64,000 nt of DNA from Vicinamibacterales bacterium (GCA_035547155.1 DASZVJ010000133.1:135-64134); one strand, 5' to 3'. Shown: positions 1 to 32,391, counted from the stretch's first letter. The notes: a model not told the origin generated them from the sequence alone. Program-made: numbers and translations.

Positions 1-699
1 CGAGAGCCGCAGCAGGCGCTTCGTCGTGTACGGCCATGGCGCGCGGCCGTAGAGCGATTCCGCCCACTTCGGCATGCGGCGATTGAGCGCCGCTGATACC
101 GGCAGCTCGAGCACGTCACTCGTGCCCGGCCGCGTAGCGGAGTCGTACGCGAGGTAGTACGGCGTGAGCGGCGCGTCGACGAAATCCGGTCCGCCCTTGT
201 GGGCCTCGTAGAACAACGGCGTGACGCTCGAGTCGACGCGATAGCCGAGCCGCTCGAGTGACGAGACATGCGCGGCCGAGAATCCGAATCGTCCCGATCG
301 ATACGACACGGGCCGCTCGCCGACGGCGTCGACAATCGCCTCCGTCAGCGCTGCGAGCTGCGCGTCGAACTGATCGATCGGCAGCGACAGCGCGTACGGA
401 TGGCGATCGATATCCGCTGGCTCGCAGGGCGGCGTCTCCCACGCGTGATGGTGGGCGCCGATCTCCGCGTCGCCGCGCGCGAGAATGCGACGCAGGACTG
501 CGGCGGACTCCGGATCGCGCGCGACCGGATACGTCACGACGTACGTCGGCCGGACGCCATGCTGCGCGAAGAAATCGTGCAGCCGCTCGAGCGCGCGCGT
601 GTTGGCGAACGTCTGATGCCGGCGAGCCTCGCGGTCCCACTGGTTGTCGCCTTCGGTGTCGATGGCGACGAGCAAGGCAGGAGGGGACGTCGTGATCAT
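1..699 (-). CDS. Polysaccharide deacetylase-family protein (CE4/ArnD/WalW-like), C-terminus outside the window
   Basis: My own translation of the minus strand from the ATG at 699 stays open to the window edge (MITTSPPALLVAIDTEGDNQWDREARRHQTFANTRALERLHDFFAQHGVRPTYVVTYPV...GAHHHAWETPP...SYRSGRFGFS). It is absent from the ORF track because no stop lies in the window. ATGA start/stop overlap with the upstream GNAT gene (696-699). Confidence 0.75.
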   Translation of the reverse strand, partial: MITTSPPALLVAIDTEGDNQWDREARRHQTFANTRALERLHDFFAQHGVRPTYVVTYPVARDPESAAVLRRILARGDAEIGAHHHAWETPPCEPADIDRHPYALSLPIDQFDAQLAALTEAIVDAVGERPVSYRSGRFGFSAAHVSSLERLGYRVDSSVTPLFYEAHKGGPDFVDAPLTPYYLAYDSATRPGTSDVLELPVSAALNRRMPKWAESLYGRAPWPYTTKRLLRLS

Positions 700-1739
700 C
701 GATCCAGATCGGAGTCGCCGAGCGTGACGTGCCAGCGATCGGTCGACGCGTAGAACGCGTCCGGCACCGGCGCGGCGTTGATCTTGGCGACGAAGTCGAC
801 CGTCGACTTGACCGGATAGTAGCCGGACTTCCGCAGCCGCTTGCGAAAGGCGTCGTGCAGCGCGAACGTGCGAATCTTGTCGGTGTCCGCCGCGCGCGCT
901 TCGCGATCGACCCAGCGCAGCAGCGTCAACATCCCGGCGGCATCGTCCGGATCGGTGAGGAAATCGACGAGTACCGTCACGCGGCCGCGCGGCTCCTGCT
1001 TGTGGCGGTAGACGGCGTAGCCGACGGGCTCGCCGTCGCGCACGAGCGCCGCGATCGCGTAGCGCACGTGCGGCGCCTGGATGTACTTCCAGTTGAGATA
1101 GGCCGCGTCGCGCCGGACGGCGAACGCGAACCGCGTGGCGATGCGCTCCCACAGCCGTGTGAAGCCCTCGTCGAAGTGACGAATCGTCCGCACTTCGCCC
1201 TGCAGCGGCTTGGCGCGTGAGACGAGGCGCACCCACGGCAGCGTGACGTACGAGACGAGGCGGTTGAGCGCGACCGGCCACGTCGGACGCCGCAGCGCAC
1301 GCCGGCTGAGCGGCTTGACGAAGCACGGCAGCGGGCCGAGATCCGGCCAGCGCATCTTCTTGAACAGGCGATACGACGATTCCGACAGGCCGAGCCCGAG
1401 CGAGGCGCCGGTGTGCCGATCCCACGTGCGGAACAGCACGTCGCCGAGGCCCTGGCGCTGCCGCTCGGGCGCGACCATCACGTCCATGCCCCAGGACGCG
1501 TCGATGTCCTGCCCCTGCGCGTGCAGCTTCACCGGCATCGTCGCGTACTGCCCGACGATCGTGGCGCCCTCGCGCGCGATCCAGATCTGCGGGCCCTCGG
1601 CCGGTGCATTCGGGTTGCGGCGATATTGCCAGTCCCAGCGAAGACGGCTCGCGTCGGCCGCGTCGGGCCCGAAGACACGGCGGTACAGGGCCTCGACCTG
1701 CCGGCGATCTTCGGTGCGATAACGATCGATGTCAGCCAT
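696..1739 (-). CDS. GNAT-family N-acetyltransferase (two-domain type common in polysaccharide loci)
   Basis: 347 aa ORF. MADIDRYRTEDRRQVEALYRRVFG...VAPERQRQGLGDVLF is an acetyl-CoA-binding Q/RxxGxG-like motif. Coherent non-repetitive composition, unlike the overlapping frames. Confidence 0.75.
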   Translation of the reverse strand: MADIDRYRTEDRRQVEALYRRVFGPDAADASRLRWDWQYRRNPNAPAEGPQIWIAREGATIVGQYATMPVKLHAQGQDIDASWGMDVMVAPERQRQGLGDVLFRTWDRHTGASLGLGLSESSYRLFKKMRWPDLGPLPCFVKPLSRRALRRPTWPVALNRLVSYVTLPWVRLVSRAKPLQGEVRTIRHFDEGFTRLWERIATRFAFAVRRDAAYLNWKYIQAPHVRYAIAALVRDGEPVGYAVYRHKQEPRGRVTVLVDFLTDPDDAAGMLTLLRWVDREARAADTDKIRTFALHDAFRKRLRKSGYYPVKSTVDFVAKINAAPVPDAFYASTDRWHVTLGDSDLDR

Positions 1740-1766
1740 GTCGCGTGTGAGGCCAGCGAGGCGCGG

Positions 1767-2603
1767 TCAGGCCGCGCTCAGCACGTATTCGATATTACTG
1801 ATCAGCGCGTCCTGCGTCAGCGGGCTGTCGCGCACCCATCGCGCCAGGGGCGCCGGCAGGCGACGGACGGTCGACGTCACGTGCAATTCCTCGCGCACGA
1901 CATGCAAGCCAGCCGCCGCGATTTGGCTGCGGAGGCGCACGACGCGCACCTTCTCGAGCAAGTCGTCGTGCTTCGCGATGCCGAGTCGCGCGTCGCGGAT
2001 GAACGAGTTCTCGTGCGCGGGCTCGCGCAGCGTCCACGGCGCGTAACGCGCGAGCACGCGAAACGTGCGGAACGCGATCGCGCGGCCGGCGATCAAGTGC
2101 AGCGGCACCGGCACGCGCAGGCGCGGCAGGTGCGCGCCGGCGAACGAGAGATACGGCGCAGTCGAGAGATAGCAGCGGCCGCCAGGCGCGAGCACGCGGC
2201 GGCACTCGCGCAAATACAGCGGCGCGTCGGCGACGTGCTCGATTACGGCGTGCGACAGCACGAGATCGAACGCGCCGTCGGGAAAGGGCAGCGCCATGCC
2301 ATCGGCGCGCGCAAAATGCAGGTTCGCGAGGCCACGCTCGTGTGCGAGCACGACGCCGGCCTGGCCGAAGCGGTCGATCGGATCGATGCCGACGACCTCG
2401 CGCGCGTGCTCGGCGAGCGACAGGGGCATGCCGCCGCCGCCGCAGCCGGCGTCGAGCACGCGGCCACCGATCGTCACGCCCGCACGCTCGAGGAACGCGA
2501 GAACCTTGGCGCTGCGGTAGTACTCGAACAGCGCGTAGTCGTACTCGGATCGGAATCGCCGATCGGCATGCGCCTTGATGAGGTCGTCTCTAATCTCGCG
2601 CAT
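1767..2603 (-). CDS. Class I SAM-dependent methyltransferase
   Basis: 278 aa. VLDAGCGGGGMPLSLA glycine-rich SAM motif I, then FDLVLSHAVIEHV and LAPGGRCYL motifs. 14-nt overlap with the upstream gene stop. Confidence 0.85.
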   Translation of the reverse strand: MREIRDDLIKAHADRRFRSEYDYALFEYYRSAKVLAFLERAGVTIGGRVLDAGCGGGGMPLSLAEHAREVVGIDPIDRFGQAGVVLAHERGLANLHFARADGMALPFPDGAFDLVLSHAVIEHVADAPLYLRECRRVLAPGGRCYLSTAPYLSFAGAHLPRLRVPVPLHLIAGRAIAFRTFRVLARYAPWTLREPAHENSFIRDARLGIAKHDDLLEKVRVVRLRSQIAAAGLHVVREELHVTSTVRRLPAPLARWVRDSPLTQDALISNIEYVLSAA

Positions 2604-4317
2604 GCGGCTCGTCGGTCGGCATCTTGTCGATGAGCACCGCGCGATCGGGATCCGGCGTCTCGTCGACCGTGAACGTCGCGACGACCCGGCGTCTGGGATA
2701 GCGGTCGAGGATGCCCTGGATCAGGCCTGACCCGTCCGAGCTCTCGTAGCCAATGCGGGGCAAATCGTAGGTCAGTATATAGCGCGCATCGTCGCGTTGA
2801 AGGCGGTCGTCGTAGTTGCCGAAGCCGTTGCCGACGAAGAGCGGCCGGATGCGATTGTCCAGCGCGAGGCCGTTGGCGAGCTTGCCCTGCACGATCGTTC
2901 CGGGCGGCAGCAACCGTCCGAGCGCGACCGATGCCTCGTAGTTGACGTCCGATCGATGCTGCGTCCAGCGGACGTACTCGAAGGCATTCCAGGACAGGAC
3001 GAGAATCAGCCACATGGCCGCGACGCGCGCACGCGCCGATGCGGTCGACACGAGCGATGTCGTCCAACGCGGTTTCCAAAGCTGTAGCGTCGTCCACAAC
3101 ACCGCGATGGCCGCGGCCAGACGCACGGCTATCCGGTAGGGATTCGCGTCGATGTCCGCCACGACGAGCGGCCGCAGCAAGCTGCCGGCAACGATGTACG
3201 CAAGCGGAAGAGAGATCAGCGCACGGGCAACGCGGGCGCGACCGTCCGGCTCCGGAGCTGACGCGGACGTATTCGTCCAGGCGCGTGCGGCCAGGAGCGC
3301 GGCGAGCGCGGTCAGCGCCGGAATGAACATCACATAGCGGCGCTCGTTGCTCGAGTCGTGGACGACGAGCTCGGCGAATCCGATCAGCACCCACAGCACG
3401 AGCAGACGCTCCGCAGGCTTCGCGTCGCGCCAGCGGCGGACGATGCCGGCAAGACCGATCGCGGCGGCCACGAGCACCAGCCACATGCGGCTCAGGATGC
3501 CTTCCGCGACCGGCAGCCACGACGCGCGTTCCGCGAACGCGTGAAGCGTGTACGCCGGCTTGCGCGTCACGCTCATCTGCCAGTTGTAGAAGCGATAGTC
3601 GGCCCAATGCGGCAGGACGAACAGCGTCCCGGCGATCGCGAACGTGATCGCGAGACCGGCGAGCGTCCACCAGGCCAGTCGCGTGTCCGCACGGCGATCC
3701 GGCGCGTCCGCTCGCCACGCGCGGATGATCGCGAGACCCGCATCGAGCGCGAGCGCGGCGACGAAGAACGCGGCCGCGGCTTTCGTAAACCACGCGCCAG
3801 CTGCGGCGACGCCGGCGATCGCGCCCCATCGCGCGTCACGCGATCCGCGCGCGTACGCCGCCCACGCGACGACCATCGCGGCGGTCATCGTCGATTCCAT
3901 CAGCGCCGCGCGGTTCCACATCACGAACGCGTACGTCGTGGCAAGGACCGCTGCGCCAATCGCGGCCGCTTCGCGGCCGGCGATCGTCTTCAGGCCGATG
4001 ACGAGCGCGATGATCGCCACGAGACCCGAAACGAGCGGCACGACACGCGCCTGCCAGAGGCCGACGCCGAAGGTCTCGAACGACGCGTACTCGAGCGCTG
4101 TGAAGACGGGTGCGACGAAGACGGGATTCCACGCGTCGGTGCGCCACGCGCCCCACAGCGCGCGGTTGCGCGCGTTGTGGACCCATGCGCCTTCGTCGTG
4201 CCAGACGATGCCGACCGAGTCGGCGACCGGCGGATCGGCGCGTAACCACGCCACGCGCATGAACAGCCCCACGGCGAAGATCGCCGTGAGCACGGACGCG
4301 AACGTCCGGCGGCTCAT
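2590..4317 (-). CDS. ArnT/PMT-like GT-C fold membrane glycosyltransferase (GT39/GT83-like)
   Basis: 575 aa. Many hydrophobic helices. WHDEGAW Asp-Glu motif shortly after the first TM helix, as in lipid-phosphate-sugar dependent GT-C enzymes. C-terminal soluble domain of about 120 aa. Confidence 0.75.
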   Translation of the reverse strand: MSRRTFASVLTAIFAVGLFMRVAWLRADPPVADSVGIVWHDEGAWVHNARNRALWGAWRTDAWNPVFVAPVFTALEYASFETFGVGLWQARVVPLVSGLVAIIALVIGLKTIAGREAAAIGAAVLATTYAFVMWNRAALMESTMTAAMVVAWAAYARGSRDARWGAIAGVAAAGAWFTKAAAAFFVAALALDAGLAIIRAWRADAPDRRADTRLAWWTLAGLAITFAIAGTLFVLPHWADYRFYNWQMSVTRKPAYTLHAFAERASWLPVAEGILSRMWLVLVAAAIGLAGIVRRWRDAKPAERLLVLWVLIGFAELVVHDSSNERRYVMFIPALTALAALLAARAWTNTSASAPEPDGRARVARALISLPLAYIVAGSLLRPLVVADIDANPYRIAVRLAAAIAVLWTTLQLWKPRWTTSLVSTASARARVAAMWLILVLSWNAFEYVRWTQHRSDVNYEASVALGRLLPPGTIVQGKLANGLALDNRIRPLFVGNGFGNYDDRLQRDDARYILTYDLPRIGYESSDGSGLIQGILDRYPRRRVVATFTVDETPDPDRAVLIDKMPTDEPHARD

Positions 4318-4412
4318 GTCAGGACGCGTGCCGGATCGAATGACCCGGCAAGCTTCGGAAACGTGAAGAATCGGCCGGCCAGCATGACGATAACGAGGTC
4401 ATATACTCACAT

Positions 4413-5576
4413 ATGCTCATGCGCGTCGCATCTGTCGTTCCGCTCGCGTTGATCGTGTCCGTCGCCGGCATGGCGGCTCAGCAGCGTACGACCGGCAGCG
4501 AGCCCACGCCTGGCCCGGATCGCACAGAGGCGGCGCGGCTGGAGCAGGGGTGGGCATGTCTGGCGCGTGAAGATCTGCCGTGCGCATCCGCGCGCGCCAA
4601 TGCCGCGTTGGCCGCCGCGCCGAGAAGCGGCGCCGCGCTCGATCTGGCCATTGAAGTCGACATCGCCCGGGCCGGCGCGTCGAGCGCCCTCGACACCTAT
4701 GAGCGATGGCTGGGCTCGCGTCGTATCGAAGAGCCCGCGGTGCTCAGACGGATCGCGATCGCCCTGCTGAAAGATCTGACGCGATCGACTCAAGACCCCG
4801 CCGTTCGCCTGGCGGCATACAGCGCGCTGCTCGACGCTGGAGATCCGGACGCCAAGATGTACTTTGCGCATGGCGTGCAGCGCGGATCCGGCGCTGAGCT
4901 TCGCGTCATGGCGGCACGGGGAGATGCCGGTGCCGTCGGCGCGTTGGCAACGGCCCTCGAGAACGAGCAGTTGCCGAATGCGATGGAGGGGATCGACGCG
5001 CTGGCCCAAAGCCACAGCGACCGTGCGACGCAGGCGCTGTTGAGCCGGATCAGCGACCCACGCTCGGAGATCAGGAGCGCAGTGGCGACGGCGCTCGGAC
5101 AGACCGGCGATTCGGCGACGATTCCGCGTCTGCAGACGATGCTGAAGGATCAGAGCATGCAAGTACGCGTCAGCGCGGCTTCTGCGCTGTATGCGCTCGG
5201 CGACACGAGCGGGTTGCCGCTCATTCAGCAAATGGCGGCCGCGGACGCGCCGCAGTCTCGACTGACGGCCGCGCGAGCCTTGGCGAGTCATCCTGACGCG
5301 GAATGGGGCACGCTCGTGCAAGGGTTGACCTCGTCGCCCGATCAGGACGTGCGGCTTGCGGCGTCTCAGCTTCTCATCACGCGCGATGCCGGCCTTGGAA
5401 CCGATGCGCTCGTGCGCCTGGCCAATGACGCCTCGGGCCCGATCGCGCAGCAGGCGACGCGCACGATCGCGGCGACGGCGCCTCTGGACTTGTCCGACTT
5501 GCGAGCGTATCTGCGTCACGGCGATCCGATGGTGCGCGCGTCCACCGCGGGACGCATCATCAAGCTGACCAACTGA
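4413..5576 (+). CDS. Secreted HEAT/PBS-lyase-like repeat protein
   Basis: 387 aa. N-terminal signal-like segment MLMRVASVVPLALIVSVAGMAAQQ. Repeated D/Px(x)VRxxAAxALG helical-repeat units (DPRSEIRSAVATALGQTGD, DQSMQVRVSAASALYALGD, DQDVRLAASQLL). Confidence 0.7.
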   Translation: MLMRVASVVPLALIVSVAGMAAQQRTTGSEPTPGPDRTEAARLEQGWACLAREDLPCASARANAALAAAPRSGAALDLAIEVDIARAGASSALDTYERWLGSRRIEEPAVLRRIAIALLKDLTRSTQDPAVRLAAYSALLDAGDPDAKMYFAHGVQRGSGAELRVMAARGDAGAVGALATALENEQLPNAMEGIDALAQSHSDRATQALLSRISDPRSEIRSAVATALGQTGDSATIPRLQTMLKDQSMQVRVSAASALYALGDTSGLPLIQQMAAADAPQSRLTAARALASHPDAEWGTLVQGLTSSPDQDVRLAASQLLITRDAGLGTDALVRLANDASGPIAQQATRTIAATAPLDLSDLRAYLRHGDPMVRASTAGRIIKLTN

Positions 5577-5621
5577 CGTGCGATCTGCCGTCGCCAAATC
5601 GGACTGCACTATAGTGACGCC

Positions 5622-6401
5622 GTGTCCCTCGTGTCCTCGCCCGATCTGACGCTCGTCGTTCCCACGTACAACGAACGCGATCGTCTCGCCGAGCTCGTGC
5701 AGGCGCTGTTCGATGCGGCGTCCGCGGCATCCGTGGCGCTCGAGCTCGTCATCGTCGACGACAACTCGCCCGACGGCACCGGTGCGCTGGCCGACGAGCT
5801 GGCGCGCACGCATCGCATGCAGGTCGTCCATCGCGTCGGCAAGCTGGGGCTCGGCACGGCGGTCGTCGCCGGTTTCGCCGTGGCGACGGCTGACGTCTTC
5901 GGCGTGATGGATGCCGACTTCAGTCATCCCCCCGCGCTCGTGCCGAAGATGTTCGCGGCGTTTCGCGCCACACAGGCGGACGTCCTCGTCGCGAGCCGGT
6001 ACGTGCCCGGCGGCAGCACGCCGGACTGGCCCTTCAAACGGCGCCTGCTCTCGCGCATCGGCTGTCTGCTCGCGCGCGGGCTGTCGCCGATCCGGGATGC
6101 CGCGTCGGGGTTCTTCCTGATTCGACGGGACATCGCGCGGGACGTCGCGATCAAGGCGGGCGGCTTCAAGATCTGTCTCGAGCTCATCGTCCGCGGCACG
6201 CCAGGCACGCTCGTCGAGCTGCCGTACCGGTTCGACGACCGCGAGCTCGGCGAGAGCAAGATGAGCATGCGCGAGGCGTCGGGCTATCTGTTCCAGCTGC
6301 GCGATCTGTACTGGCTGAGCTGGACGCGAGCGCGCCGGCCGGCGCCGCGCTATCGGCGGTTGACGGAGGCCGAAGTCGCGACGATGGCGGCGCGGCGCTG
6401 A
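5622..6401 (+). CDS. Polyprenol/dolichol-phosphate mannose synthase-like GT2 (Dpm1/Ppm1 catalytic-domain type)
   Basis: 259 aa. LVVPTYNERDRL...VIVDDNSPDGTG...MDADFSHPP...GFFLIRR...GFKICLEL...ESKMS is the typical soluble Dpm1/Ppm1 signature series. GTG start. Confidence 0.85.
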   Translation: MSLVSSPDLTLVVPTYNERDRLAELVQALFDAASAASVALELVIVDDNSPDGTGALADELARTHRMQVVHRVGKLGLGTAVVAGFAVATADVFGVMDADFSHPPALVPKMFAAFRATQADVLVASRYVPGGSTPDWPFKRRLLSRIGCLLARGLSPIRDAASGFFLIRRDIARDVAIKAGGFKICLELIVRGTPGTLVELPYRFDDRELGESKMSMREASGYLFQLRDLYWLSWTRARRPAPRYRRLTEAEVATMAARR

Positions 6402-6407
6402 CGCGTG

Positions 6408-8324
6408 TCAGTGCAGCTCGTACAGCGCGGAGCTGCTGCCCCGCCAGCGCAGGCGCACGAGGCGCCGGAAATGCGGCGACGCCTCGACTGCCGTCAGCAG
6501 CTGCTCGCAGCCCTCGGGCGAATAGTAGAGCGCACAGCTGAATGTCACGTGCGTGACGCCCGCGCCGCGTAAGGCCTCGATCGCCTGCGGTTCCGGCACG
6601 TCTTCTACGCGTTTCACGAGATCGGAATAGTCGCGCGGCGAAAAGCCGCTGTAGCCGTCGATCATGTTCGACCAGTGCCACAGCGAGAAGTACATGAACG
6701 GCACGCTCTCGGTGAAGTCGCCGACGTGCTGCCGCATCGGAAACTCGGCGAGCACGACCTTCGGCGAGTGCGGGAGCGATGCGTAGATCGGCGGCGGCCC
6801 GTCCCAGACGGGCTCGAGTCCCAGATGCGGCCACACGTCGACGGCGATGAGCGCGGTCAGGCCGGCGACGAGCACCTGCCGCTGACGCGCCGTGCGGCAT
6901 CGCGCGAGCAGACGCCTGGCGCCGAACCCCGCGAAAATCGCGAGCGACAGACCCACCAGCACGCTGAATCGCGAGGCGACGCGCATGCCGCGCACGGGCG
7001 AGAGCCAGTCGTAGAAGAGCGGATAGAGCACGCCGTTGAAGCCGAGCGACGACTCCCACGCAAACGCCATCCCGGCGCCGTAGACGAGCGACAACGGTCC
7101 GAGCGGCGGCACGAGACCGGCCGTCGCGAGTCCGAGTGCCATGGCGCCCGGAAACAGCGCGCGCTCCGGGTGCTCGCTTCGGAGGACCCGGCGGTACAAC
7201 ACGCTGCGGTCGTGCGCCTGGAAGTAGTCCGCCGGCGTGGCGCTGTAGTACTTGACGGCGTTGATGTCGCGCTCGCCCTTCTCGCCCTGGGCGGCTTCGT
7301 AGACGCGCATCAACGGAAACGCGCAGATGGCGGCGAGCACGCCGGCGACGATCGCCCCCGGCAGCAGACGACGGATCGGCGCCCGCCTCACGCAGAGCAG
7401 AATCGCTGCAACGGGCACCAGGTACAACACGAAGAACACCGTGTAGTACATCGTCGAGTAGAGCTGCGCGACGGTCGCGGCGCCGGCGGCCAGCGCGTAT
7501 CGCAGCCGCGCCGTCTCGACGAAACGGTGCAGCGCCAGCAGCGCGAGCGGCATCCACATCATCATCTGCAGCTCGAGATGGCTGTAGTGCTCGAAGCGAT
7601 ACGGGTAGAAGCCGAAGATCATCGCGGAGATGAACGCGGCCTGGCGAGAGCCCGTCAGGTGCGCGACCAGCAGGAAGACCGCGAGTCCCGACAGCACGAA
7701 CGCCGACATGAACAGGATGTTGTAGGAAACGACCGGCTGAAGCCCGACGAGGATCAGCGGCACGTGCATCAGCGCCGGCAGCAGCATCGAATCGGAATAG
7801 GTGAGCGTCAGCGGATGCGGATAGTAGATGTTCGTGTCGAACAGCGGACGCGGGTCGCCCTGGATCTGATGAAAGACCCAATTCAGGCGCCAGACGGAAA
7901 AGAGCGGGTCGCCGAGGTCTGGGACCGATCGCATGTGCAGAACCTGCTCGTGCAGGAGCACGGCGCCGACGGCGATGAGCCCGCACGCCGCCCACAGCAC
8001 GTGCGACGCGCGCAGCGGCGATGACTCCTGAACGATCCACGCGTCGGGTTGGTAAAGGCGCTGCCACAGCGCGCGCCAGCGATCGCGCGCCAGGCCGAGC
8101 ACCGGCGGCGTTCGAAATGCGATGAACCGAATCGCAGCCAGAACGAGCGCGAGGCTGAACGCGCGTCCGCCTCCACGCGCGGAAATCTGCACGCCTGCGA
8201 TGTCAGTTCGGAAGCCGCCCGTGAGCTCGATCACGACGCCCGCGGCGGCGACGATGAAGATGATGAGATCGAGCCCGACGGCCAACGCGCGGTTACGCGC
8301 GTCAGGGCGTGTCTGGGAAGGCAC
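6408..8324 (-). CDS. Large polytopic membrane protein, putative GT-C-like glycosyltransferase (family unassigned)
   Basis: 638 aa. More than 10 hydrophobic segments, DLGDPLFSVWRLNW loop motif, C-terminal soluble domain of about 120 aa. Hydrophobic composition is only coherent in this frame. Confidence 0.65.
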   Translation of the reverse strand: MPSQTRPDARNRALAVGLDLIIFIVAAAGVVIELTGGFRTDIAGVQISARGGGRAFSLALVLAAIRFIAFRTPPVLGLARDRWRALWQRLYQPDAWIVQESSPLRASHVLWAACGLIAVGAVLLHEQVLHMRSVPDLGDPLFSVWRLNWVFHQIQGDPRPLFDTNIYYPHPLTLTYSDSMLLPALMHVPLILVGLQPVVSYNILFMSAFVLSGLAVFLLVAHLTGSRQAAFISAMIFGFYPYRFEHYSHLELQMMMWMPLALLALHRFVETARLRYALAAGAATVAQLYSTMYYTVFFVLYLVPVAAILLCVRRAPIRRLLPGAIVAGVLAAICAFPLMRVYEAAQGEKGERDINAVKYYSATPADYFQAHDRSVLYRRVLRSEHPERALFPGAMALGLATAGLVPPLGPLSLVYGAGMAFAWESSLGFNGVLYPLFYDWLSPVRGMRVASRFSVLVGLSLAIFAGFGARRLLARCRTARQRQVLVAGLTALIAVDVWPHLGLEPVWDGPPPIYASLPHSPKVVLAEFPMRQHVGDFTESVPFMYFSLWHWSNMIDGYSGFSPRDYSDLVKRVEDVPEPQAIEALRGAGVTHVTFSCALYYSPEGCEQLLTAVEASPHFRRLVRLRWRGSSSALYELH

Positions 8325-8337
8325 GGCTCATCTTACA

Positions 8338-8365
8338 TTTCGAGCTTCGAACTTCAACCTTGAAC
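8338..8365. repeat. Degenerate tandem heptamers tttcgag-cttcgaa-cttcaac-cttgaac in an intra-operon spacer
   Basis: Read directly from the sequence. Same CTTCGAA unit as at 49228-49241 and 52480-52500. Confidence 0.6.
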
Positions 8366-8380
8366 GCCCGCGGCGCGTCG

Positions 8381-10324: not shown

Positions 10325-10358
10325 GTCGTCAGGCTGATGGGGATCACGTCCGTCGCGA

Positions 10359-22357: not shown

Positions 22358-22375
22358 CGGGCGTCGGTCGCGATG

Positions 22376-25974: not shown

Positions 25975-25976
25975 GG

Positions 25977-27002
25977 CTACGAGGGTATCGCATCGGCGAC
26001 GGGATCGACGTAGCGGCCGGCGTAGGCGTCGTAGAACGCCAGCGTCCGCGTCAATCCCGTGCGGAGATCGACGGTCGGCGTCCAGCCCGTCGCGCCGGTG
26101 AACTTCGTCGAGTCGGAATAGAACGAGCCGATGTCGATGCGCCGTTTTTCGTCCGGCCAGTGGACGAACCGCATCGAGCCGCGGCGTGCGACGTCGATCA
26201 GCAGCGCGACGAGATCGCGGTGCGCGATCGGCTCGTGGCCGCCGACGTTGAACACGCCGCCGTTGCACTCCTCGCAGTAGCCCGCCCGCAGAAACGCGTC
26301 GGACACGTCGTCGACGAAGACGAAATCGCGGACCTGCGATCCGTCGCCGTAAATTTGGATCTCGCGATTCTCGAGCGCGAGCCGGATGAACCAGCCGATG
26401 AAGCCCTGGCGGTTGTGCCGGATGAGCTGCCTCGGGCCGTAGACGTTGGTCAGACGCAGCGAGCAGGCGCGCACGCCGAACACGTTGTTGTAGACGAGGT
26501 GATACTGCTCGCCCGCGGCCTTGTTGATGCCGTTGATGTCGGTCGGCCGCACGAGATGCGACTCGTCGACGGGCAGCCGATCGGGCCGGCCGTAGATCTG
26601 CCGCGTGCCCGCGTAGACGACTTTCGTCTCGGGATTGTGCTGCCGGCAGGCCTCGAGCAGCGTGAGCTGCGATCGACAGTTGATCTCGAGATCCGTGTGC
26701 GGGTCGCGCATGCTGTCGATATGACTGACCTGGCCCGCGAGGTTGAAGATCACCTCGCGTCCCCGCACCAGGTAGTTCATCGTCGTGCCCTGCCGGATGT
26801 CCGCGATGTTGACGCGGAGCCGCGCCTCGTAGCCGTCGAGATTGAACAGGTTGCCGCCGTAATCCGGCAGCAGCGAGTCGACGATGAGCACGTCGGCGCC
26901 GAGATCGACGAGACGCCGCGCGAGGTTCGAGCCGATGAAGCCGGCGCCGCCGGTGATGAGCACGCGGCGGTGGCGATAGAAGTCGAGATAGTCAGCGGTC
27001 AT
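25977..27002 (-). CDS. NAD-dependent SDR nucleotide-sugar epimerase/dehydratase
   Basis: Start at the ATG at 27002 (MTADYLDFYRHRRVLITGGAGFIGSNL), an 11-nt overlap with the GT4 stop. Extended-SDR layout with a YxxxK-equivalent INGINKAAGE region. Confidence 0.85.
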   Translation of the reverse strand: MTADYLDFYRHRRVLITGGAGFIGSNLARRLVDLGADVLIVDSLLPDYGGNLFNLDGYEARLRVNIADIRQGTTMNYLVRGREVIFNLAGQVSHIDSMRDPHTDLEINCRSQLTLLEACRQHNPETKVVYAGTRQIYGRPDRLPVDESHLVRPTDINGINKAAGEQYHLVYNNVFGVRACSLRLTNVYGPRQLIRHNRQGFIGWFIRLALENREIQIYGDGSQVRDFVFVDDVSDAFLRAGYCEECNGGVFNVGGHEPIAHRDLVALLIDVARRGSMRFVHWPDEKRRIDIGSFYSDSTKFTGATGWTPTVDLRTGLTRTLAFYDAYAGRYVDPVADAIPS

Positions 27003-28266
27003 AGGCGATGGCGGCGTCACCATACTCTTCCGCGCCGGGACTCGACAAGGGACGGCCCTGCACGACGGCGTCGTAAATCGTCTCCAGCCGTTCTGCGACA
27101 TGCGGCCAGCCGAAGCGCTGCGTGACGGCCTCGCGCGCGGCGGCGCCGAGACGCCGGCCCAACGATTGATCGCGCAGCAGGCGCGCGATCGCATCGGCGA
27201 GCGCGCCCGCGTCGCGTTCCGGCACCAGCAGACCCGTCACGCCGTCCTCGATCGCCTGCGGCAGGCCGCCGACGCGGCTGGCGACGACCGGCGTGCCCGT
27301 CGCCAGCGCTTCGAGCGCGACGTTCGGCAGGCCGTCGACGTTGCCGGCCTCGTCGTGCACCGACGGGACCGCGACGACGTCGGCGGCGGCGGCGAGCCGG
27401 CCGATCTCGTCCTGCGCCTGATTGCCGAGGAGCACGCGCGTGCCGAGCGGCGCGGCGCGACGCTCGAGATCGGCGCGCAGATCGCCGTCGCCCGCAATGA
27501 CCAGGCGCAGCTGTGGCAGCGTCGCGCGTAGCGCCAGCGCCGCATCAATCAGGATCTCGAAGCCCTTCTTGCTGACGAGACGGCCCGCCGCGAAGATCAC
27601 CGGGGCGTCGCCGAGATCGAAGCGGCGGCGGACGTCGGCGCGCGTGGCCGGACTTGGGGCAAAGCGCGCGACGTCGACGCCGTACGGGAGCGTCTCGATC
27701 CGATTGGCCGGCGCGCCGAGCGCGACCGCGCGCCGGTGCAGGTCGTCACTGCAGGCCGTGATCCACTCGGCGCGTTTGAAGACGTGACGAGCCGCGCGTC
27801 CGACGAGCGCGCGCCGTTCGGCCATGAAGACGTCCGAGCCGTGCAGGCTGACCACGAGCGGCCGCCCGCCCGCCGCCACCGATCCAATCGCGCCGCCAGG
27901 CACGGCCCAATGCGCGTGCACGACGGTCGCGCGGCGCTTCTGCGCCACGCGCATCGCTTTGAACGTGCCGGTCGCCAGCGCCGACGGTGTCGCGAGCCAC
28001 GCCCCGAGCTTGAGCTGCGTGTCGGCGTGCAGGCTCGAGGCATAGCCGAAGACGTTCATCGACGGCGTCAACGCATAACGGAAAAAATGGAAGAAGACAC
28101 CATCCTCCTCGCGTCCACGCGTGAGGGCGGGATGCCATGGCGCGACGAGATGGACTTCGTGTCCGCGCGCGGCGACGCCTTTGGCAATGGGCTCGATGAA
28201 GCTACCGACGCCGTCGCCCGGAAACCGCGGGTACGAGGTCGTGATCATGACAACGACGTGGCGCAT
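26992..28266 (-). CDS. GT4 (GT-B, retaining) glycosyltransferase
   Basis: 424 aa. MRHVVVMITTSYPRFPGDGVGSF… and the EX7E region PNVALEALATGTPVVASRVGGLPQAIEDGVTGLLV. Confidence 0.9.
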   Translation of the reverse strand: MRHVVVMITTSYPRFPGDGVGSFIEPIAKGVAARGHEVHLVAPWHPALTRGREEDGVFFHFFRYALTPSMNVFGYASSLHADTQLKLGAWLATPSALATGTFKAMRVAQKRRATVVHAHWAVPGGAIGSVAAGGRPLVVSLHGSDVFMAERRALVGRAARHVFKRAEWITACSDDLHRRAVALGAPANRIETLPYGVDVARFAPSPATRADVRRRFDLGDAPVIFAAGRLVSKKGFEILIDAALALRATLPQLRLVIAGDGDLRADLERRAAPLGTRVLLGNQAQDEIGRLAAAADVVAVPSVHDEAGNVDGLPNVALEALATGTPVVASRVGGLPQAIEDGVTGLLVPERDAGALADAIARLLRDQSLGRRLGAAAREAVTQRFGWPHVAERLETIYDAVVQGRPLSSPGAEEYGDAAIAYDR

Positions 28267-28269
28267 GAG

Positions 28270-29520
28270 TCAGGTGCGTGAGCGGCGCGTGCGATGCGCG
28301 AGCGCCGCGAGGCCGGCGCCGCCGAGCACGACGAGCGCCGGATCGATGATCGGAATGCGAAAGCGTTCCTGCGAAAAGAATACAAGACACGTGAGCACGG
28401 CCGATGCGGCGAGCATCCACACGCCCGGCGTGCGGCCGAGCTGGCGGCCAAGGGTCGTCGCGCCCACGATCGCAAGCACGAGCACGACACCATAGGACGC
28501 GACCGACGCGACGAAATATCGTGACGAGTGCAGCGTGTACGACGGGCCGATCGGCACGACGAGATAGAAGACCTTGCGGGCTTCGAGCCCGAGCCACGCG
28601 AGCGGATGCGCGGCCATCCACGCAAACGCCTCGCGATAGTAGATCGGCTCCATCGCTTCTTCCGTCAGTCCTGGATGTTCCGCGCGCAACCGGATGTTGT
28701 CCTGCTTGATGGCGACGTTCGCCGCCATGTCGCCGTCGCCCGTCGCCAGCGGATGATTGCCGGTCCAGAACGTCACGCCGCCATCAGACGCGACGATCAT
28801 CAGGCGGCCGTGATGGACGTAGTTGCGGATGGTCCATGGACCGACGATGAGCGCGACGCCGAGCGCGAGCCCCGTCAACGTCACGAAGCGCCGGCGGAGC
28901 AGGAGATAGACGCCGGCAATCGGCAGGAACAGCAGCAGGCCGGGCCGGATGAGCAGTCCCGCCCCGACGGCGAGGCCGCACACGATCGCGCCGGAGACGC
29001 GCGCCGGTGGCGTCAGCGCGCGATCGAACAGCCACGCCACCAGCAGTCCGACGGGCCAGAAGAGCGCTTCGCTCCACGCGTATCCCGCGATCCAGACGAG
29101 CGGCGGATAGATCGCGGCGAGCGCGGCAGCCGCTCGTGCCGCGCGTGCGCCGGCCAGGCGATGGGCGATCACGCCAACGAGCCACACGCCAAGCGCGCCG
29201 ACACACGCCTGCGCGATCTTCAGCGCGGCCGGTACGCTCGTCGTCACGGTTCGGCCTGCGCCGACGAGCGCGATGAACGCGGGATAGCCAGGCGCGCGGC
29301 CGAACGGGACGAACGATCCCGCGCGGAGCAGCTCGTCGTAGACGAACCCATGTCCTGCGGCGAGGCTGCGCGCGAGCGACAAGTACTCGAGCTCGTCACG
29401 CGTCAGGGGTTGATGCGTCCAGTAGAGCAGCCCGAAGGCGAGGCGTGCGACGAGCGCGGCCAGCGTCGCGGCCGTCAGCCATGCCACGGGCAGGCGATCT
29501 CGCGTGCTAGCGGCGTCCAT
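28270..29520 (-). CDS. ArnT-like GT-C fold membrane glycosyltransferase (short form)
   Basis: 416 aa. TM1, then LTRDELEYLSLARSLAAGHGF (Asp-Glu loop motif typical of the ArnT/GT83/GT39 family). About 10 TM helices. Confidence 0.8.
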   Translation of the reverse strand: MDAASTRDRLPVAWLTAATLAALVARLAFGLLYWTHQPLTRDELEYLSLARSLAAGHGFVYDELLRAGSFVPFGRAPGYPAFIALVGAGRTVTTSVPAALKIAQACVGALGVWLVGVIAHRLAGARAARAAAALAAIYPPLVWIAGYAWSEALFWPVGLLVAWLFDRALTPPARVSGAIVCGLAVGAGLLIRPGLLLFLPIAGVYLLLRRRFVTLTGLALGVALIVGPWTIRNYVHHGRLMIVASDGGVTFWTGNHPLATGDGDMAANVAIKQDNIRLRAEHPGLTEEAMEPIYYREAFAWMAAHPLAWLGLEARKVFYLVVPIGPSYTLHSSRYFVASVASYGVVLVLAIVGATTLGRQLGRTPGVWMLAASAVLTCLVFFSQERFRIPIIDPALVVLGGAGLAALAHRTRRSRT

Positions 29521-30367
29521 CGGCGCGCAACGCCGCGACTTGTTCGGACACGAGGCCGACGAGCAGGATCAGCACGGCGATCACGATCAGCAGGACCGAC
29601 GTGTTGGTGACGTGCAACTGCGTGGCGATGGTCCAGACCGCGTAGGCGGCGCCCGCCAGGAAGCAGACGCCGGCGATCGGCAGGAACACGCGCAGCGGAC
29701 TGAAGATCGTCATCACGCGCATGATGATCAGCAGAAACTTCGGGCCGTCGCTGGCGAGGCGAATCTTCGATTGTCCGACGCGCGTCCGCGCTTCGACCGG
29801 CTCGAACGTGACGTTGTAGCCCGCGCGCAGGAACGACAGCGTCGTCGTCGTGGGCGTCGAGAAGCCGTTGGGCAGCAGCGTGATGAACTCGCGGAGTACG
29901 TCACGGCGCGCCGCGCGGAATCCCGACGTGAGATCGGGAATCGGGAAGTCCGCCAGATAGGACGCGAGCCAGTTGAGCACCGCATTGCCGAGCCGCCGCC
30001 GCACGCCCGCCTGCGTTGCGCTCGATCGCGCGCCGACGACGAGATCGTAGTCGCCGAGGCGCGAGACGAGACGGAGCGCGTCGGACGGCTTGTGCTGGCC
30101 GTCGCCGTCGATGATCAGCAGATAGTCGCCCGCGGCCTCCCGGATGCCGGTCTTCACGGCCGCGCCATTGCCCTTGTTGTACGGATGGCGGATGACGCGT
30201 GCGCCGGCGCCCGCGGCTTCCGCCGCCGTCGCGTCCGTGGATCCATCGTCGATGACGAGGATCTCGCGCCACGCCGCCGCCGCGGCGAGCTCGCGCACGA
30301 CGCCCGCGATCGCGCCCGCTTCGTTCATGGCGGGGATGACGACAGAAACCGTCGACGGATCAGCCAT
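29507..30367 (-). CDS. GT2 polyprenyl-phosphate glycosyltransferase-like enzyme (ArnC/GtrB type with C-terminal TM helices)
   Basis: 286 aa. VSVVIPAMNE…[10 protein letters not shown]…IIDGDGQH…, plus two C-terminal hydrophobic helices (FLLIIMRVMTIFSPLRVFLPIAGVCFLAGAAYAVW…VLLIVIAVLILLVGLV). Confidence 0.85.
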   Translation of the reverse strand: MADPSTVSVVIPAMNEAGAIAGVVRELAAAAAWREILVIDDGSTDATAAEAAGAGARVIRHPYNKGNGAAVKTGIREAAGDYLLIIDGDGQHKPSDALRLVSRLGDYDLVVGARSSATQAGVRRRLGNAVLNWLASYLADFPIPDLTSGFRAARRDVLREFITLLPNGFSTPTTTTLSFLRAGYNVTFEPVEARTRVGQSKIRLASDGPKFLLIIMRVMTIFSPLRVFLPIAGVCFLAGAAYAVWTIATQLHVTNTSVLLIVIAVLILLVGLVSEQVAALRADGRR

Positions 30368-30370
30368 CGT

Positions 30371-31348
30371 TCAGCGCTCCACGTCCGCGTCGTCATCGCG
30401 CGATGGCGACGCGGCTTCCATGCGCCGGACGCGGTAGAGCAGGTCTTCGAGCAGCTTGCGCGTGCCGGAGATCACGTCCGCAACCAATCCGATGAGCACG
30501 ACCTGGAAGCCGACGATCATCAGGACCGCCGACAGGATCAACGACTGGATCTTGCCTTCGGCGCCATGCGCGAAGAGGTAGTAGTAGAGGAAGCGCAGCG
30601 AAATCGCGAAGCCCGCGAGGAACACGGCCGAGCCGATGTACGAGAAGACCTTCAGCGGCTCGTACATCGTGTAGATGCGCACGATCGTCGCGCCGGACTG
30701 CTTCAGATACGCCCAGATGCTGTGGAACAGCCGCGACGGCCGCGTGTGCGCGTTGGTCGCCACCTCGACGTGCGCGATCGCCATGCGCTTCTTGCCGGCC
30801 TGGATGATCGACTCGAGCGTATAGGAGAAGTCCGACACGACTGTCATGCGCAGCGCGGCCTCGCGCGTGTAAGCGCGGAAGCCGCTCGTCGTGTCCGGCA
30901 CTTCGGTGCTCGACACCTGGCGCACGACCCAGCTGCCGAGGCGCTGCAGCAGCTTCTTCGGCCAGGACATGTGGCGAATCTCGCGGATGTTGCGATCCCC
31001 GATCACGATGTCGGCCCGTCCGGAGAGCAGCGGCGCGACGAGCTTGGCGATGTCCGCTCCGGCGTACTGGTTGTCCGCATCCGTGTTGACGATCAGATCG
31101 GCACCGGCGCGCACGCTGGCGTCGATGCCGGCCATGAACGCGACGGCCAGCCCTTTGCGCCGGCGGAAGCGCAGCACGTGATGGACGCCGTGTGCGCGGG
31201 CCACCGCCGCCGTGTCGTCCGTCGAGCCGTCGTCGATGACGAGGAGCTCGATCGCGTCGACGCCCGGCACCGACGTGGGCAGGTCCGCGAGCGTCGCGGG
31301 CAGCGTTTGCGCCTCGTTGAGGCACGGGATCTGGATGATGAGCTTCAC
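30371..31348 (-). CDS. GT2 polyprenyl-phosphate glycosyltransferase-like enzyme (second ArnC/GtrB type, C-terminal TM helices)
   Basis: Preferred start is the GTG at 31348 ([14 protein letters not shown]…), giving a GTGA overlap with the upstream stop. The track start at 31384 is also possible. Motifs [11 protein letters not shown] and NTDADNQY, plus C-terminal TM helices. Confidence 0.85.
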
Positions 31349-32391
31349 AAGCCTTCGACCAGCCGATCGATCGTCTCGTGCCACGTGATGGGCCGCGCGC
31401 GATCGTAGCCCGCTTCGCCCAGCGCTTTCGCCCGCGCGCGATCGGCGGCGAGTGCCGCGATCGCCTCACCAATCGCGGCTGGATCCGGCGCGGTCACGCG
31501 GCCGTTGACACCGTCGACGACGAACAGCGCCGGCTCGCCGGCGTCCGACGTCGTGATCACCGGCTTCTTCGACAGGAACGCCTCGAGCGTGACATAGCCG
31601 AAGTCCTCGTCGAACGGCGGGTACACGACCGCCAGCGCGTTCGCGTACAACTCGATCAGCATGTCGTCGTCGATCTCGCCGAGAAAGCGCACGCGCGAGG
31701 CCACGCCTTCGTCGGCGGCGATCCGCTCGAACGCCGCGCGCTGCGTGCCGGTGCCCGCGACGACGAGCGAGACGGCGTCCGGGACGTGCGCGAGCGCGCG
31801 AATCGCGAGGTCGACACGCTTCACCGCCTCGAGCCGGCCGATCGACAGCACGTAATCGCCGTACGGCCCGGCGTGCAGGCGATCGGCCAGTCGCGGGGGA
31901 TGATACAGCGTTTCGGCCGGCAGTCCGTTGTAGCGCGACAGCCGATCCGTCACCGTCTGCGCGATCGTGAAAATCCGCCGCGATTCCGCGAGCATCCGCG
32001 TGTCGAGATCGATCAGGCGCTCGCGCACCGCGACGTCGCGCTCGACGTGATCGAACTCGCTGTACGGCGTTCCCGCCAGCTCGTACGCCGCGCGGTACTG
32101 ATGCACGAGCCACGTGACCTTGCTCGGATGGCGCACGCAGTACGTCGGAAATTTCGTGGCGATCACGCGATCGATCGGCCGGCCCGTGCTCTCGCTGAGA
32201 TCGAGGAGACGCCACGCGGCCGCATGCGTGAACAATTCTTCGGCGGGATACCACTTGAATGGCACGCTGACGAGATCCGTGTCGTAGCCACGCACCCGCA
32301 ATTGCGCCACGAGCTCACGCACGAGCGATTCGGCGCCGCCCCGCACGAACGGCACCTGCGCTTCGCAGACAACAACGCGCGATGGGCTCAT
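31345..32391 (-). CDS. GT4 (GT-B) glycosyltransferase, first gene of the long minus-strand array
   Basis: 348 aa. [16 protein letters not shown]… and the C-terminal E-x7-E-like region [34 protein letters not shown]. Confidence 0.85.

Follow-up and report, generated by a model that had tools for sequence, protein, structure and literature searches.

A 32-kb gene locus of a Vicinamibacterales bacterium encoding seven predicted GT-C glycosyltransferases and three polyprenyl-phosphate-sugar synthase-like enzymes: a candidate system for extracytoplasmic assembly of an envelope glycan

We analysed a glycan-assembly locus in a stretch of 64,000 nucleotides (hereafter the window) from a Vicinamibacterales bacterium (GCA_035547155.1, DASZVJ010000133.1:135-64134). 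Reading frames were picked by codon-position guanine-cytosine (GC) content, using the bias at third positions (GC3) in a window of 68% GC; near-identical JGI metagenome contigs bear independent gene calls, which coincide with ours for g17-g25. Twenty-five genes are packed into positions 1-32391, of which 98.7% is coding; an earlier annotation made from the sequence by a model (the original prediction) had given the same number. The genes are listed below with their best evidence (E-values after family or structure names). Glycosyltransferase (GT) families are written as GT2, GT4 and so on, and GT-B and GT-C denote folds; SDR stands for short-chain dehydrogenase/reductase, SAM for S-adenosylmethionine and CBM for carbohydrate-binding module.

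g01, 1-699, minus strand: partial gene of the polysaccharide deacetylase family (Pfam Polysacc_deac_1, 5.2e-5), its C-terminus beyond the left edge
g02, 696-1739, minus strand: tandem GNAT acetyltransferase (Pfam Acetyltransf_9, 5.6e-10, and Acetyltransf_1)
g03, 1767-2603, minus strand: SAM-dependent methyltransferase (Pfam Methyltransf_11, 2.7e-22)
g04, 2590-4317, minus strand: GT-C of PMT/PMT_2 type, 575 aa (PMT_2, 3.4e-8; PMT, 7e-7); WHDEGAW after the first transmembrane segment
g05, 4413-5576, plus strand: HEAT-repeat protein with signal-peptide-like N-terminus (HEAT_2, 6.6e-21)
g06, 5622-6401, plus strand: GT2, putative Dpm1/Ppm1-type polyprenyl-phosphate hexose synthase (PDB 5mlz, 7e-49)
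g07, 6408-8324, minus strand: predicted GT-C fold, YfhO-like, 638 aa (YfhO family matches, structure model); invariant VPDLGDP loop
g08, 8381-10324, minus strand: predicted GT-C fold with CBM35-like beta-sandwich, 647 aa (structure model; no Pfam family)
g09, 10359-11834, minus strand: B12-binding radical SAM enzyme, putative sugar tailoring (Pfam Radical_SAM, 4e-20; B12-binding, 1.1e-9)
g10, 11868-13601, minus strand: GT-C of PMT_2 type, 577 aa (PMT_2, 1.9e-14); NPDEV after the first transmembrane segment
g11, 13591-15081, minus strand: Wzx-like flippase candidate of the MOP superfamily (Pfam Polysacc_synt_3, 2.1e-13; NCBIfam HfsF, 4.6e-9)
g12, 15121-15903, minus strand: secreted protein with signal peptide, a domain of ~110 aa and a proline-rich tail (sequence features)
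g13, 15945-16892, minus strand: radical SAM/SPASM enzyme (Pfam Radical_SAM, 2.3e-20; SPASM, 2.5e-16)
g14, 16905-17888, minus strand: SDR nucleotide-sugar dehydratase/decarboxylase (Pfam Epimerase, 1.9e-56)
g15, 17928-19736, minus strand: 602 aa, GT-B-like C-terminal half (weak Pfam Capsule_synth, Epimerase_2 and Glyphos_transf)
g16, 19733-20959, minus strand: GT9, heptosyltransferase family (Pfam Glyco_transf_9, 3.3e-35)
g17, 20972-22357, minus strand: polytopic protein, 461 aa, putative GT-C by transitive homology (distant relatives match PMT_2); invariant GD..HH......D.D after the first transmembrane segment
g18, 22376-24868, minus strand: GT-C of PMT_2 type, 830 aa, with C-terminal CBM-like beta-sandwich (PMT_2 in five of five family members)
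g19, 24868-25959, minus strand: DegT/ArnB/PseC-type sugar aminotransferase (Pfam DegT_DnrJ_EryC1, 1.5e-114)
g20, 25977-27002, minus strand: SDR nucleotide-sugar 4,6-dehydratase/epimerase (Pfam Epimerase, 1.6e-47)
g21, 26992-28266, minus strand: GT4, cytoplasmic GT-B (Pfam Glyco_trans_1_4, 2.5e-34; Glyco_transf_4, 8.5e-21)
g22, 28270-29520, minus strand: GT-C of PMT_2 type, 416 aa (PMT_2, 2.8e-7); TRDELEY after the first transmembrane segment
g23, 29507-30367, minus strand: GT2, putative polyprenyl-phosphate sugar synthase of ArnC/GtrB/AglJ type (NCBIfam AglJ, 1.1e-40; PDB ArnC, 2e-13)
g24, 30371-31348, minus strand: GT2, putative polyprenyl-phosphate sugar synthase of ArnC/GtrB type (PDB ArnC, 4.5e-15; GtrB, 2.6e-11)
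g25, 31345-32391, minus strand: GT4, first gene of the long minus-strand run (Pfam Glycos_transf_1, 3.3e-28)

Nineteen consecutive minus-strand genes, from g25 (starting at 32391) to g07 (ending at 6408), follow one another with gaps of at most 56 bp or with overlapping stop and start codons, an arrangement that suggests an operon. Beyond them lie g06 and g05, a short pair on the plus strand, unlike the rest of the locus, and then four further minus-strand genes, g04-g01; a scan of 4200-8500 for promoters and terminators gave nothing informative. The right boundary is formed by mraZ, which is divergent from g25, and the division and cell wall (dcw) cluster, so that the right end of the predicted span (1-32391) stands. 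The left end does not: the window edge cuts g01, and because a GT4-like gene also comes after g01 in relatives (tblastn synteny), the locus probably continues past that edge.

Seven of the encoded proteins are candidate GT-C enzymes, all seven with multiple hydrophobic segments in a Kyte-Doolittle scan. For the three that the original prediction had called clear GT-Cs with an Asp-Glu motif (g04, g10 and g22), coordinates, motifs and family agree: each matches PMT_2 above the Pfam gathering score, as g04 also does PMT. Four more large polytopic proteins, left unassigned in the prediction, lie at 6408-8324, 8381-10324, 20972-22357 and 22376-24868 as it had said. Rather than as transporters, Wzy polymerases or ligases, these appear as GT-Cs, g07 and g08 by AlphaFold2 (AF2) models compared with Foldseek, g18 by the PMT_2 matches of its family and g17 via distant relatives only.

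Fold comparison linked g07 and g08 to solved structures where sequence searches did not. Family-profile searches of solved structures with g07, g08, g17 and g18, and single-sequence searches with g10 and g15, gave nothing useful. Both AF2 models have at least 13 helices. In the g07 family, 15 of 36 members match Pfam YfhO (best 1.5e-7), and with the g07 model (pLDDT 88.3) the top 28 Foldseek matches in the PDB are all GT-C enzymes (DPY19 at 1.8e-6, STT3, AftA, AftD, ArnT, PglB, Emb, Pmt and ALG3), with TM-scores of 0.50 against AftA and AftD; GT-C folds are matched exclusively down to an E-value of 0.07, and transporters appear only from E>0.3. The more than 200 homologues of g08 are all unnamed, lack a Pfam family and come nearly all from Vicinamibacterales. 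Its model, built from 37 sequences (pLDDT 90.3), begins with a single N-terminal helix, continues with a beta-sandwich (residues ~35-180) and ends in ~13 helices, and the membrane part resembles STT3 (1.1e-4), DPY19, AftA and PglB (E-values of 1e-4 to 3e-3, TM-scores of 0.31-0.40).

The beta-sandwich of g08 resembles CBM35/CBM36 modules by Foldseek, and a second copy is found in g18. By itself g18 falls slightly below the PMT_2 threshold, and five of five members of its family match PMT_2 (best 8.3e-8). An hmmsearch with the profile of the g08 family picks up the last ~120 residues of g18 (711-829) at 2e-10 through the beta-sandwich, so that two otherwise unrelated proteins have a CBM-like module in common, placed right after the first transmembrane segment in g08 and C-terminally in g18.

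The assignment of g17 is more distant. No direct Pfam or PDB match was found, and the NCBIfam match is to the putative glycosyltransferase LA_3751/LA_3752 (9.5e-5). A g17 family profile retrieves 8138 cluster representatives at 50% identity, 1598 of them with E<=1e-30. A Pfam scan of 36 close relatives gave nothing relevant; distant members (~1e-60 to 1e-76) match PMT_2 in the equivalent region at 8e-6 to 3.6e-4, two of them above threshold, and frequently carry a C-terminal ILEI domain. Alignment of the g17 family with the g07 and g08 families by hhalign gave no support (probabilities of 0.07% and 8%).

An all-against-all phmmer comparison of the seven GT-Cs yielded no significant pair. Recent tandem duplication was rejected on this ground, and since no mutual similarity is detectable the seven probably represent seven distinct families and specificities; at least two, having no direct Pfam match, would be new GT-C families. 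Acidic motifs follow an early transmembrane segment in six of the seven, as judged by sequence position: HDE in g04, PDE in g10 and RDE in g22, and invariant residues in g07 (D136/D139), g17 (D54, D68 and D70) and g18 (E119, D126 and E133). In g08, D229 and D297 are invariant, likewise by alignment position.

The three GT2s were predicted to be of Dpm1/ArnC/GtrB type, and polyprenyl-phosphate-sugar synthases are indeed their best NCBIfam and solved-structure matches. Pfam Glycos_transf_2 is matched at 4.6e-31, 2.9e-27 and 5.5e-22 by g06, g23 and g24, which contain the DxD-type motifs DAD, DGD and DAD, respectively; the top PDB match is dolichol-phosphate-mannose synthase (DPMS) or ArnC for all three, DPMS and GtrB being matched as well, and the best NCBIfam matches are AglJ, PpgS, ArnC, Dol-P-hexose transferase and PgfS. 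The product of g06 aligns over residues 7-230 with the Pyrococcus DPMS (5mlz) and more weakly with ArnC (5e-14), contains MDADFSHPP and comprises the catalytic domain alone, without a transmembrane segment. Dpm1/Ppm1 types of this kind depend on a partner protein, and no membrane partner of g06 was identified. For g23, NCBIfam PpgS (3.8e-27) and PDB GtrB (1.4e-6) are matched besides AglJ and ArnC; the ArnC alignment (residues 5-253) stops before the last predicted hydrophobic segment, such segments lying at 210-283. The product of g24 aligns with ArnC/GtrB nearly end to end (13-306 versus 8-296), C-terminal membrane hairpin included, and matches AglJ at 3.5e-33. All NCBIfam scores of the GT2s are under the equivalog cut-off (for example, AglJ at 139.9 versus 325 bits and ArnC at 69 versus 529 bits); thus, these matches support the kind of enzyme and not the identity of the sugar.

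The remaining classes named in the original prediction (a Wzx flippase, two GT4s, a GT9, sugar-nucleotide tailoring enzymes and two radical SAM enzymes) were recovered by Pfam and NCBIfam, and a GT-B-like protein absent from its list, g15, was added, with an NCBIfam match to 'surface carbohydrate biosynthesis protein' (4.4e-12) and no PDB sequence match. The MOP/Wzx-like g11 is the only flippase candidate in the locus. Among the tailoring enzymes, g14 matches LegB (1.1e-51), UDP-4-keto-pentose/UDP-xylose synthase (1.8e-48) and the ArnA C-terminal domain (1.2e-35), g19 matches ArnB (1.8e-67) and PseC (1.3e-65), and g20 matches dTDP-glucose 4,6-dehydratase (2.6e-38); g16 matches heptosyltransferases I, II and III, all at ~1e-31. 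Every one of these NCBIfam matches is below its cut-off, and those of g21 are generic only. The best matches of g09 are HpnJ (2.7e-51) and BchE, also below cut-off; a hopanoid link was rejected, as the HpnJ score is 175 bits against a cut-off of 578.

Two genes of other kinds accompany these enzymes. The g12 protein combines a signal peptide, a domain of ~110 aa (EWAR..G...VN motif), a GxPDDE(L/I)PP motif and a proline-rich tail. It has no Pfam or NCBIfam family match (a resemblance of the domain to STN/secretin-type domains found no support in any search) and is conserved at eight related loci (L007, L009, L010, L013, L050, L065, L067 and L068 of the survey described below). Its tails hold 23-34% Pro, and 9-23% Ser+Thr across homologues, and the protein may serve as a substrate for glycosylation or as a scaffold across the periplasm. 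The HEAT-repeat gene g05 occupies a variable slot and has homologues at 28-36% identity near g08 paralogues. An antisense open reading frame at 4407-5927 (minus strand) was considered as the true gene of this slot and rejected, as it has no similarity to the 551-aa protein that a relative encodes there and would overlap g06; homologues elsewhere and better codon-position GC favour g05.

Equally characteristic is what the locus lacks. As the original prediction had noted, no Pfam or NCBIfam domain of a priming phosphoglycosyltransferase, Wzy, Wzz, Wza or ABC exporter was found in any of the 25 genes. Nor was one found among the other window genes scanned, where the dcw genes at ~38-49 kb, except MraY, were assigned by order and size only. 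The only phosphoglycosyl (PNPT)-type enzyme checked in the window is a genuine MraY (39348-40439, 1.4e-114). Priming enzymes often lie outside glycan loci. The prediction held that these absences leave the product unexplained; the absences stand and are less puzzling than claimed, given that MOP flippases have been proposed for polyprenyl-phosphate-monosaccharides (PMC11127046, PMC8035078).

We surveyed the distribution of the locus by a pattern and tblastn scan, with one genome per species, followed by tblastn of the 25 proteins against the loci (numbered L001 onwards) with 10-kb flanks. Relatives of g08 were found at 56 loci, nearly all in metagenome-assembled genomes (MAGs) of Vicinamibacterales, Vicinamibacteria or Acidobacteriota, often with several paralogues per genome. 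Many of these paralogues (up to three per MAG) are solitary, with no neighbours similar to window genes (for example, L011, L012 and L020-L028), and the roles of the g08 family thus appear to reach beyond this locus. Synteny of the gene set itself extends, at 45-98% amino-acid identity, to a number of independent MAGs, including GCA_035550115.1, GCA_039933635.1 and GCA_963853165.1, and the set is therefore not a chance assembly.

Two sub-modules are conserved by tblastn: module A, comprising g01-g04, g06, g09, a g08-type gene, g10 and g11, and module B, comprising g12-g25. Taken as the whole stretch g01-g11, module A holds three or four GT-Cs, and module B holds three. The deacetylase gene g01 is kept at 67-92% in module-A loci. 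In GCA_039933635.1, B then A are contiguous at 55-89% identity. Module B is found with extra GT2s in GCA_963853165.1, and also in an abundant metagenomic population (L068, the query protein being listed in 184 blocks of the collection), where the locus adds a GT-C of family GT87 (PimE family) at 18050-19348 and two more unassigned polytopic proteins.

The closest relative, GCA_035550115.1 (L065), has the same gene order at 79-98% identity. We compared its variable regions (1807-4319 and 12741-14396) with window positions 4413-5576 and 8381-10324: g08 is missing, and in place of g05 stands a gene for a 551-aa polytopic protein with the sequence DQKPPG, which may be ArnT/PMT_2-like. A pair of O-acetylation genes (MBOAT and AlgX/SGNH type) is inserted between g13 and g12. 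The GT-C complement thus differs between close relatives within a conserved frame. Variable transferase content within such a frame is typical of surface-glycan loci.

We consider it probable, with appreciable room for doubt, that the locus is an envelope-glycan machine conserved in the lineage Vicinamibacterales (Acidobacteriota) which works mainly by extracytoplasmic GT-C transfer from polyprenyl-monophosphate sugars. Three GT2 synthases, one MOP protein and seven GT-Cs are co-located in one operon-like locus, as in multi-component transmembrane glycosylation, in which a sugar is loaded onto polyprenyl phosphate by a GT2, carried across the membrane by a flippase and handed on by a GT-C outside the cytoplasm (PMC11127046, PMC8035078). 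The presence of three donor-synthase genes beside the GT-Cs is circumstantial support for their use of lipid-phosphate-sugar donors.

From family membership we infer the following course. In the cytoplasm, the SDRs g14 and g20 and the aminotransferase g19 would make amino/deoxy nucleotide sugars, which g02, g03 and the radical SAM enzymes g09 and g13 would further modify. At the inner leaflet g06, g23 and g24 would load sugars onto polyprenyl phosphate, g06 probably a mannose-type hexose, and g01 may trim a lipid-linked N-acyl sugar in the manner of ArnD. Cytoplasmic GT-B enzymes (the GT4s g21 and g25, the GT9 g16, and g15) would build a primer or core on a lipid acceptor, and g11 would flip the lipid-linked donors, the lipid-linked primer or both; MATE/Wzx-type flippases have been proposed for undecaprenyl-phosphate-sugars in analogous systems (PMC11127046, PMC8035078). 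On the periplasmic face g04, g07, g08, g10, g17, g18 and g22 would each add a specific residue or linkage. The main acceptor would be a glycan polymer, either a polysaccharide or a lipoglycan, that is lengthened and branched in the periplasm like mycobacterial lipomannan (LM), lipoarabinomannan (LAM) or arabinan, since g08 and g18 carry homologous CBM35-like beta-sandwiches; carbohydrate-binding domains on GT-Cs are thought to hold acceptor polymers (PMC8035078, PMC3044687), EmbC being a solved example (PMC3044687).

Several points weigh against this interpretation. The left end of the locus is outside the window. In several genomes modules A and B are found apart, as far as 10-kb flanks show, and more than one product may therefore come from the locus. 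Sub-cut-off NCBIfam matches throughout leave the sugars as guesses; no GtrA/SMR-type flippase was found in the locus, and the flippase role of g11 is assumed. The GT-C assignment of g17 is indirect and the weakest of the seven, and the Foldseek TM-scores of the models are moderate (0.38-0.50). The GT9 and the GT4s fit a role in the core of lipopolysaccharide (LPS) equally well, and the host organism is known from metagenomes only.

The separation of the modules also lends some weight to an alternative compatible with the envelope-glycan machine, namely that two or more independent systems lie side by side, modules A and B acting on different acceptors. We regard this as possible but on the unlikely side. 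Module A occurs without module B (within 10-kb flanks) at eight loci (L029, L030, L032, L035, L045, L047, L049 and L060); at four others (L007, L010, L050 and L058) module B is accompanied by g08, g10 and g11 but by no further module A gene. Many g08 paralogues are solitary. On the other side, here the modules adjoin in the same orientation, gaps being at most 56 bp, and they are contiguous in the same order in GCA_039933635.1, while L055 has g17 mixed into module A; the sole flippase candidate would need to serve both modules, and separation seen only within 10-kb flanks is not proof of it. The 'supercluster' of the original prediction accordingly holds as to contiguity in this genome and not as to a single product.

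A somewhat less probable alternative is elaboration of the LPS core and lipid A. The GT9 and GT4s would build the core and, after MsbA-type export, the GT-Cs would decorate lipid A, Kdo and core, as an expanded form of the Arn (4-amino-4-deoxy-L-arabinose, L-Ara4N), Rgt (galacturonic acid on Kdo) and Flm/Lgm (galactosamine/glucosamine) systems. Arn and Rgt are precedents for such decoration (PMC4402001), and these systems have in common with the locus a DegT aminotransferase, an SDR decarboxylase-like enzyme, ArnC-like GT2s, a deacetylase, PMT_2 GT-Cs and periplasmic transfer in Gram-negative cells (PMC4402001). The GT9 match (3.3e-35, with similarity to heptosyltransferases I-III) is consistent with this, as is the Arn-like set formed by g19 (similar to ArnB), g14 (similar to UDP-4-keto-pentose synthase and the ArnA C-domain), the GT2s, the PMT_2 GT-Cs and the g01 deacetylase, presumably of the same family kind as ArnD. 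The Arn-type matches, however, are far below equivalog cut-offs, and no formyltransferase domain, ArnE/F or NCBIfam ArnT match was found. To our knowledge, no described set that decorates lipid A or core has as many as seven GT-Cs, here including two that carry CBM-like modules, and both the number and the modules argue against this alternative. A MOP flippase also sets the locus apart from Arn, Flm/Lgm and Rgt. The O-acetylation pair of the closest relative points to a polysaccharide, and neither the locus nor the other scanned window genes showed any lpx, kdt or waa gene.

That the GT-Cs glycosylate Ser/Thr residues of disordered, proline-rich secreted or membrane proteins, with g12 as a dedicated substrate, we regard as improbable. 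PMT/Pgf systems do combine a PMT/PMT_2 GT-C with a Dpm1- or GtrB-type synthase, and in streptococci GtrB and a GT-C glycosylate S/T-rich disordered regions (PMC12041528). In the locus, g04 matches PMT (7e-7) besides PMT_2, g06 is of the Dpm1/Ppm1-like donor-synthase kind found in PMT systems, and the operon encodes, as g12, a conserved secreted protein whose tail is rich in Pro, Ser and Thr. The tails of g12, however, conserve proline richness only, several homologues having as little as 9-15% Ser+Thr; MIR domains were not detected; and the CBM-like modules of g08 and g18 favour a carbohydrate over a peptide as acceptor. The GT9, the GT4s and g15 would be superfluous for PMT-type glycosylation, which with the CBM-bearing GT-Cs leaves most of the locus unexplained.

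A conventional Wzx/Wzy locus for O-antigen or exopolysaccharide, in which some polytopic proteins are Wzy or WaaL and the primer and exporter are encoded elsewhere, is very improbable: the Wzx-like protein would suit it, as would cytoplasmic enzymes of the GT4, GT9 and GT-B kinds, g17 is without direct fold evidence and priming enzymes can sit outside glycan loci, but g07 and g08 model as STT3/DPY19/Aft/ArnT-type GT-Cs and not as Wzy, WaaL or SEDS proteins, the g18 family and distant g17 relatives match PMT_2, no phosphoglycosyltransferase, Wzz, Wza or ABC transporter was found in the locus or the other scanned window genes, and a plain Wzx/Wzy pathway has no use for three polyprenyl-phosphate-sugar synthases.

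Returning to extracytoplasmic assembly by GT-Cs, the nearest precedents in mechanism are the three- and multi-component systems (GtrA/GtrB/Gtr* of Shigella and Salmonella, CsbB/GtcA/YfhO and GacI-L of Firmicutes, GT136 of Citrobacter; PMC11127046, PMC8035078), which have the same GT2, flippase and GT-C. The likeness extends to the Wzx/MATE-type flippase proposed there too, to YfhO- and PMT_2-type GT-Cs and to carbohydrate-binding domains on some GT-Cs. Those systems, however, are small add-ons, usually of one GT2, one flippase and one GT-C, which decorate a polymer from another pathway, whereas this locus has three synthases, seven unrelated GT-Cs and cytoplasmic GTs, without a GtrA/SMR protein or a visible backbone pathway; no separate pathway making an acceptor glycoconjugate was identified in the window.

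In number and variety of transferases, the locus is closer to the mycobacterial and corynebacterial assembly of phosphatidylinositol mannosides, LM, LAM and arabinogalactan (Ppm1, the GT4s PimA/PimB, PimE, MptA-C, EmbA-C and AftA-D; PMC3485146, PMC3123699, PMC3044687), which likewise uses a Dpm1/Ppm1-like synthase and GT4 primer enzymes. It also has many different periplasmic GT-Cs, one of them (EmbC) with a CBM; structural matches to AftA and AftD and the GT87 enzyme of L068 add to the resemblance. Five GT-Cs lie around the mycobacterial emb-aft region, fewer than the seven here. The differences are as plain: no Emb, Aft, Mpt or PimE family had a Pfam match in the window scans, similarity to AftA, AftD and Emb being at the level of fold only; no UbiA-type DPPRS or DprE1/2 of the decaprenylphosphoryl-arabinose pathway is present; and the host, an Acidobacterium, is diderm. 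The locus further includes a GT9, ArnC-like synthases and radical SAM tailoring enzymes, and its genes stand together rather than scattered over the genome.

The original prediction had seen in this density of GT-Cs and donors an actinobacterial or O-mannosylation logic foreign to standard Gram-negative Wzx/Wzy loci. The absence of Wzx/Wzy hallmarks bears out the second half, but Actinobacteria are not alone in using this logic: glycosylation by periplasmic GT-Cs with undecaprenyl-phosphate-sugars as donors is established in Gram-negatives (Gtr, Arn, Rgt and GT136 pentofuranose systems) and in Gram-positives (PMC11127046, PMC8035078, PMC4402001). A literature search on glycosyltransferases, GT-C and ArnT in Vicinamibacter and Acidobacteriota returned no description of this locus, and none of the gene set as an O-antigen or exopolysaccharide locus of a close relative. 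The locus can thus be called an undescribed envelope glycosylation system as an instance but not as a principle. The kind of mechanism is known; the scale (seven GT-Cs and three synthases in ~32 kb), the host lineage, the GT-C families without direct Pfam match and the shared CBM-like module are new.

Housekeeping genes flank the locus. To the right of the locus lie mraZ and mraW (32538-33885, plus strand), followed by ftsI, murE, MraY and the rest of the dcw cluster (the last by order and size), and beyond it rpoD, dnaG and mutS2. Because of these flanks, the locus is best placed on the core chromosome. A genomic island was considered and ruled out: besides the housekeeping flanks, GC content is uniform along the window at 68%, and no tRNA, integrase or Rfam element was found within the locus. 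Only the near-identical contigs L001-L003 show the locus next to mraZ; at the other loci, most of whose flanks do not reach that end, no MraZ was found. The FtsI homologue (34287-36419) has a C-terminal PASTA domain, a feature more typical of Gram-positive penicillin-binding proteins. Downstream of the dcw cluster are a 662-aa radical SAM protein with Radical_SAM_N2 (50456-52444, plus strand) and, beside rpoD, a tRNA-Met (56015-56090, minus strand), neither with a link to the glycan locus. At the right edge, a partial GT2 gene cut by the window (63101-64000, plus strand) matches Glyco_tranf_2_3, Glyco_trans_2_3 and Glyco_transf_21, a combination that points to a processive membrane synthase and possibly to a further polysaccharide gene.

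Outside Actinobacteria, extracytoplasmic glycosylation by GT-Cs is usually a minor decoration; here it is apparently the dominant assembly chemistry. We tentatively suggest, as a proposal that goes further and is less likely to be right than the general reading above, that Vicinamibacterales, soil Acidobacteria that are abundant but hardly ever cultured, build a heteropolysaccharide or lipoglycan that is a major part of their envelope, doing so almost wholly in the periplasm, GT-Cs polymerising and branching it from polyprenyl-phosphate-sugars as a diderm counterpart of mycobacterial LM/LAM/arabinogalactan. Families without direct Pfam match or sequence-level solved relative (g08, g17 and g07, the family of the last reaching the YfhO model only in part) would take part, and a varying GT-C complement would give serotype-like surface diversity. 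The locus in any case flags such families, one of them widespread (8138 cluster representatives), and its three donor synthases, one flippase candidate and seven transferases are a compact group of targets for enzymology and glyco-engineering. The variation in GT-Cs between near-identical loci suggests surface-antigen diversification relevant to interactions with phages and predators in soil and, if the proposal is true, the mycobacterial way of building envelope polymers would extend to a Gram-negative phylum among the most abundant in soils.

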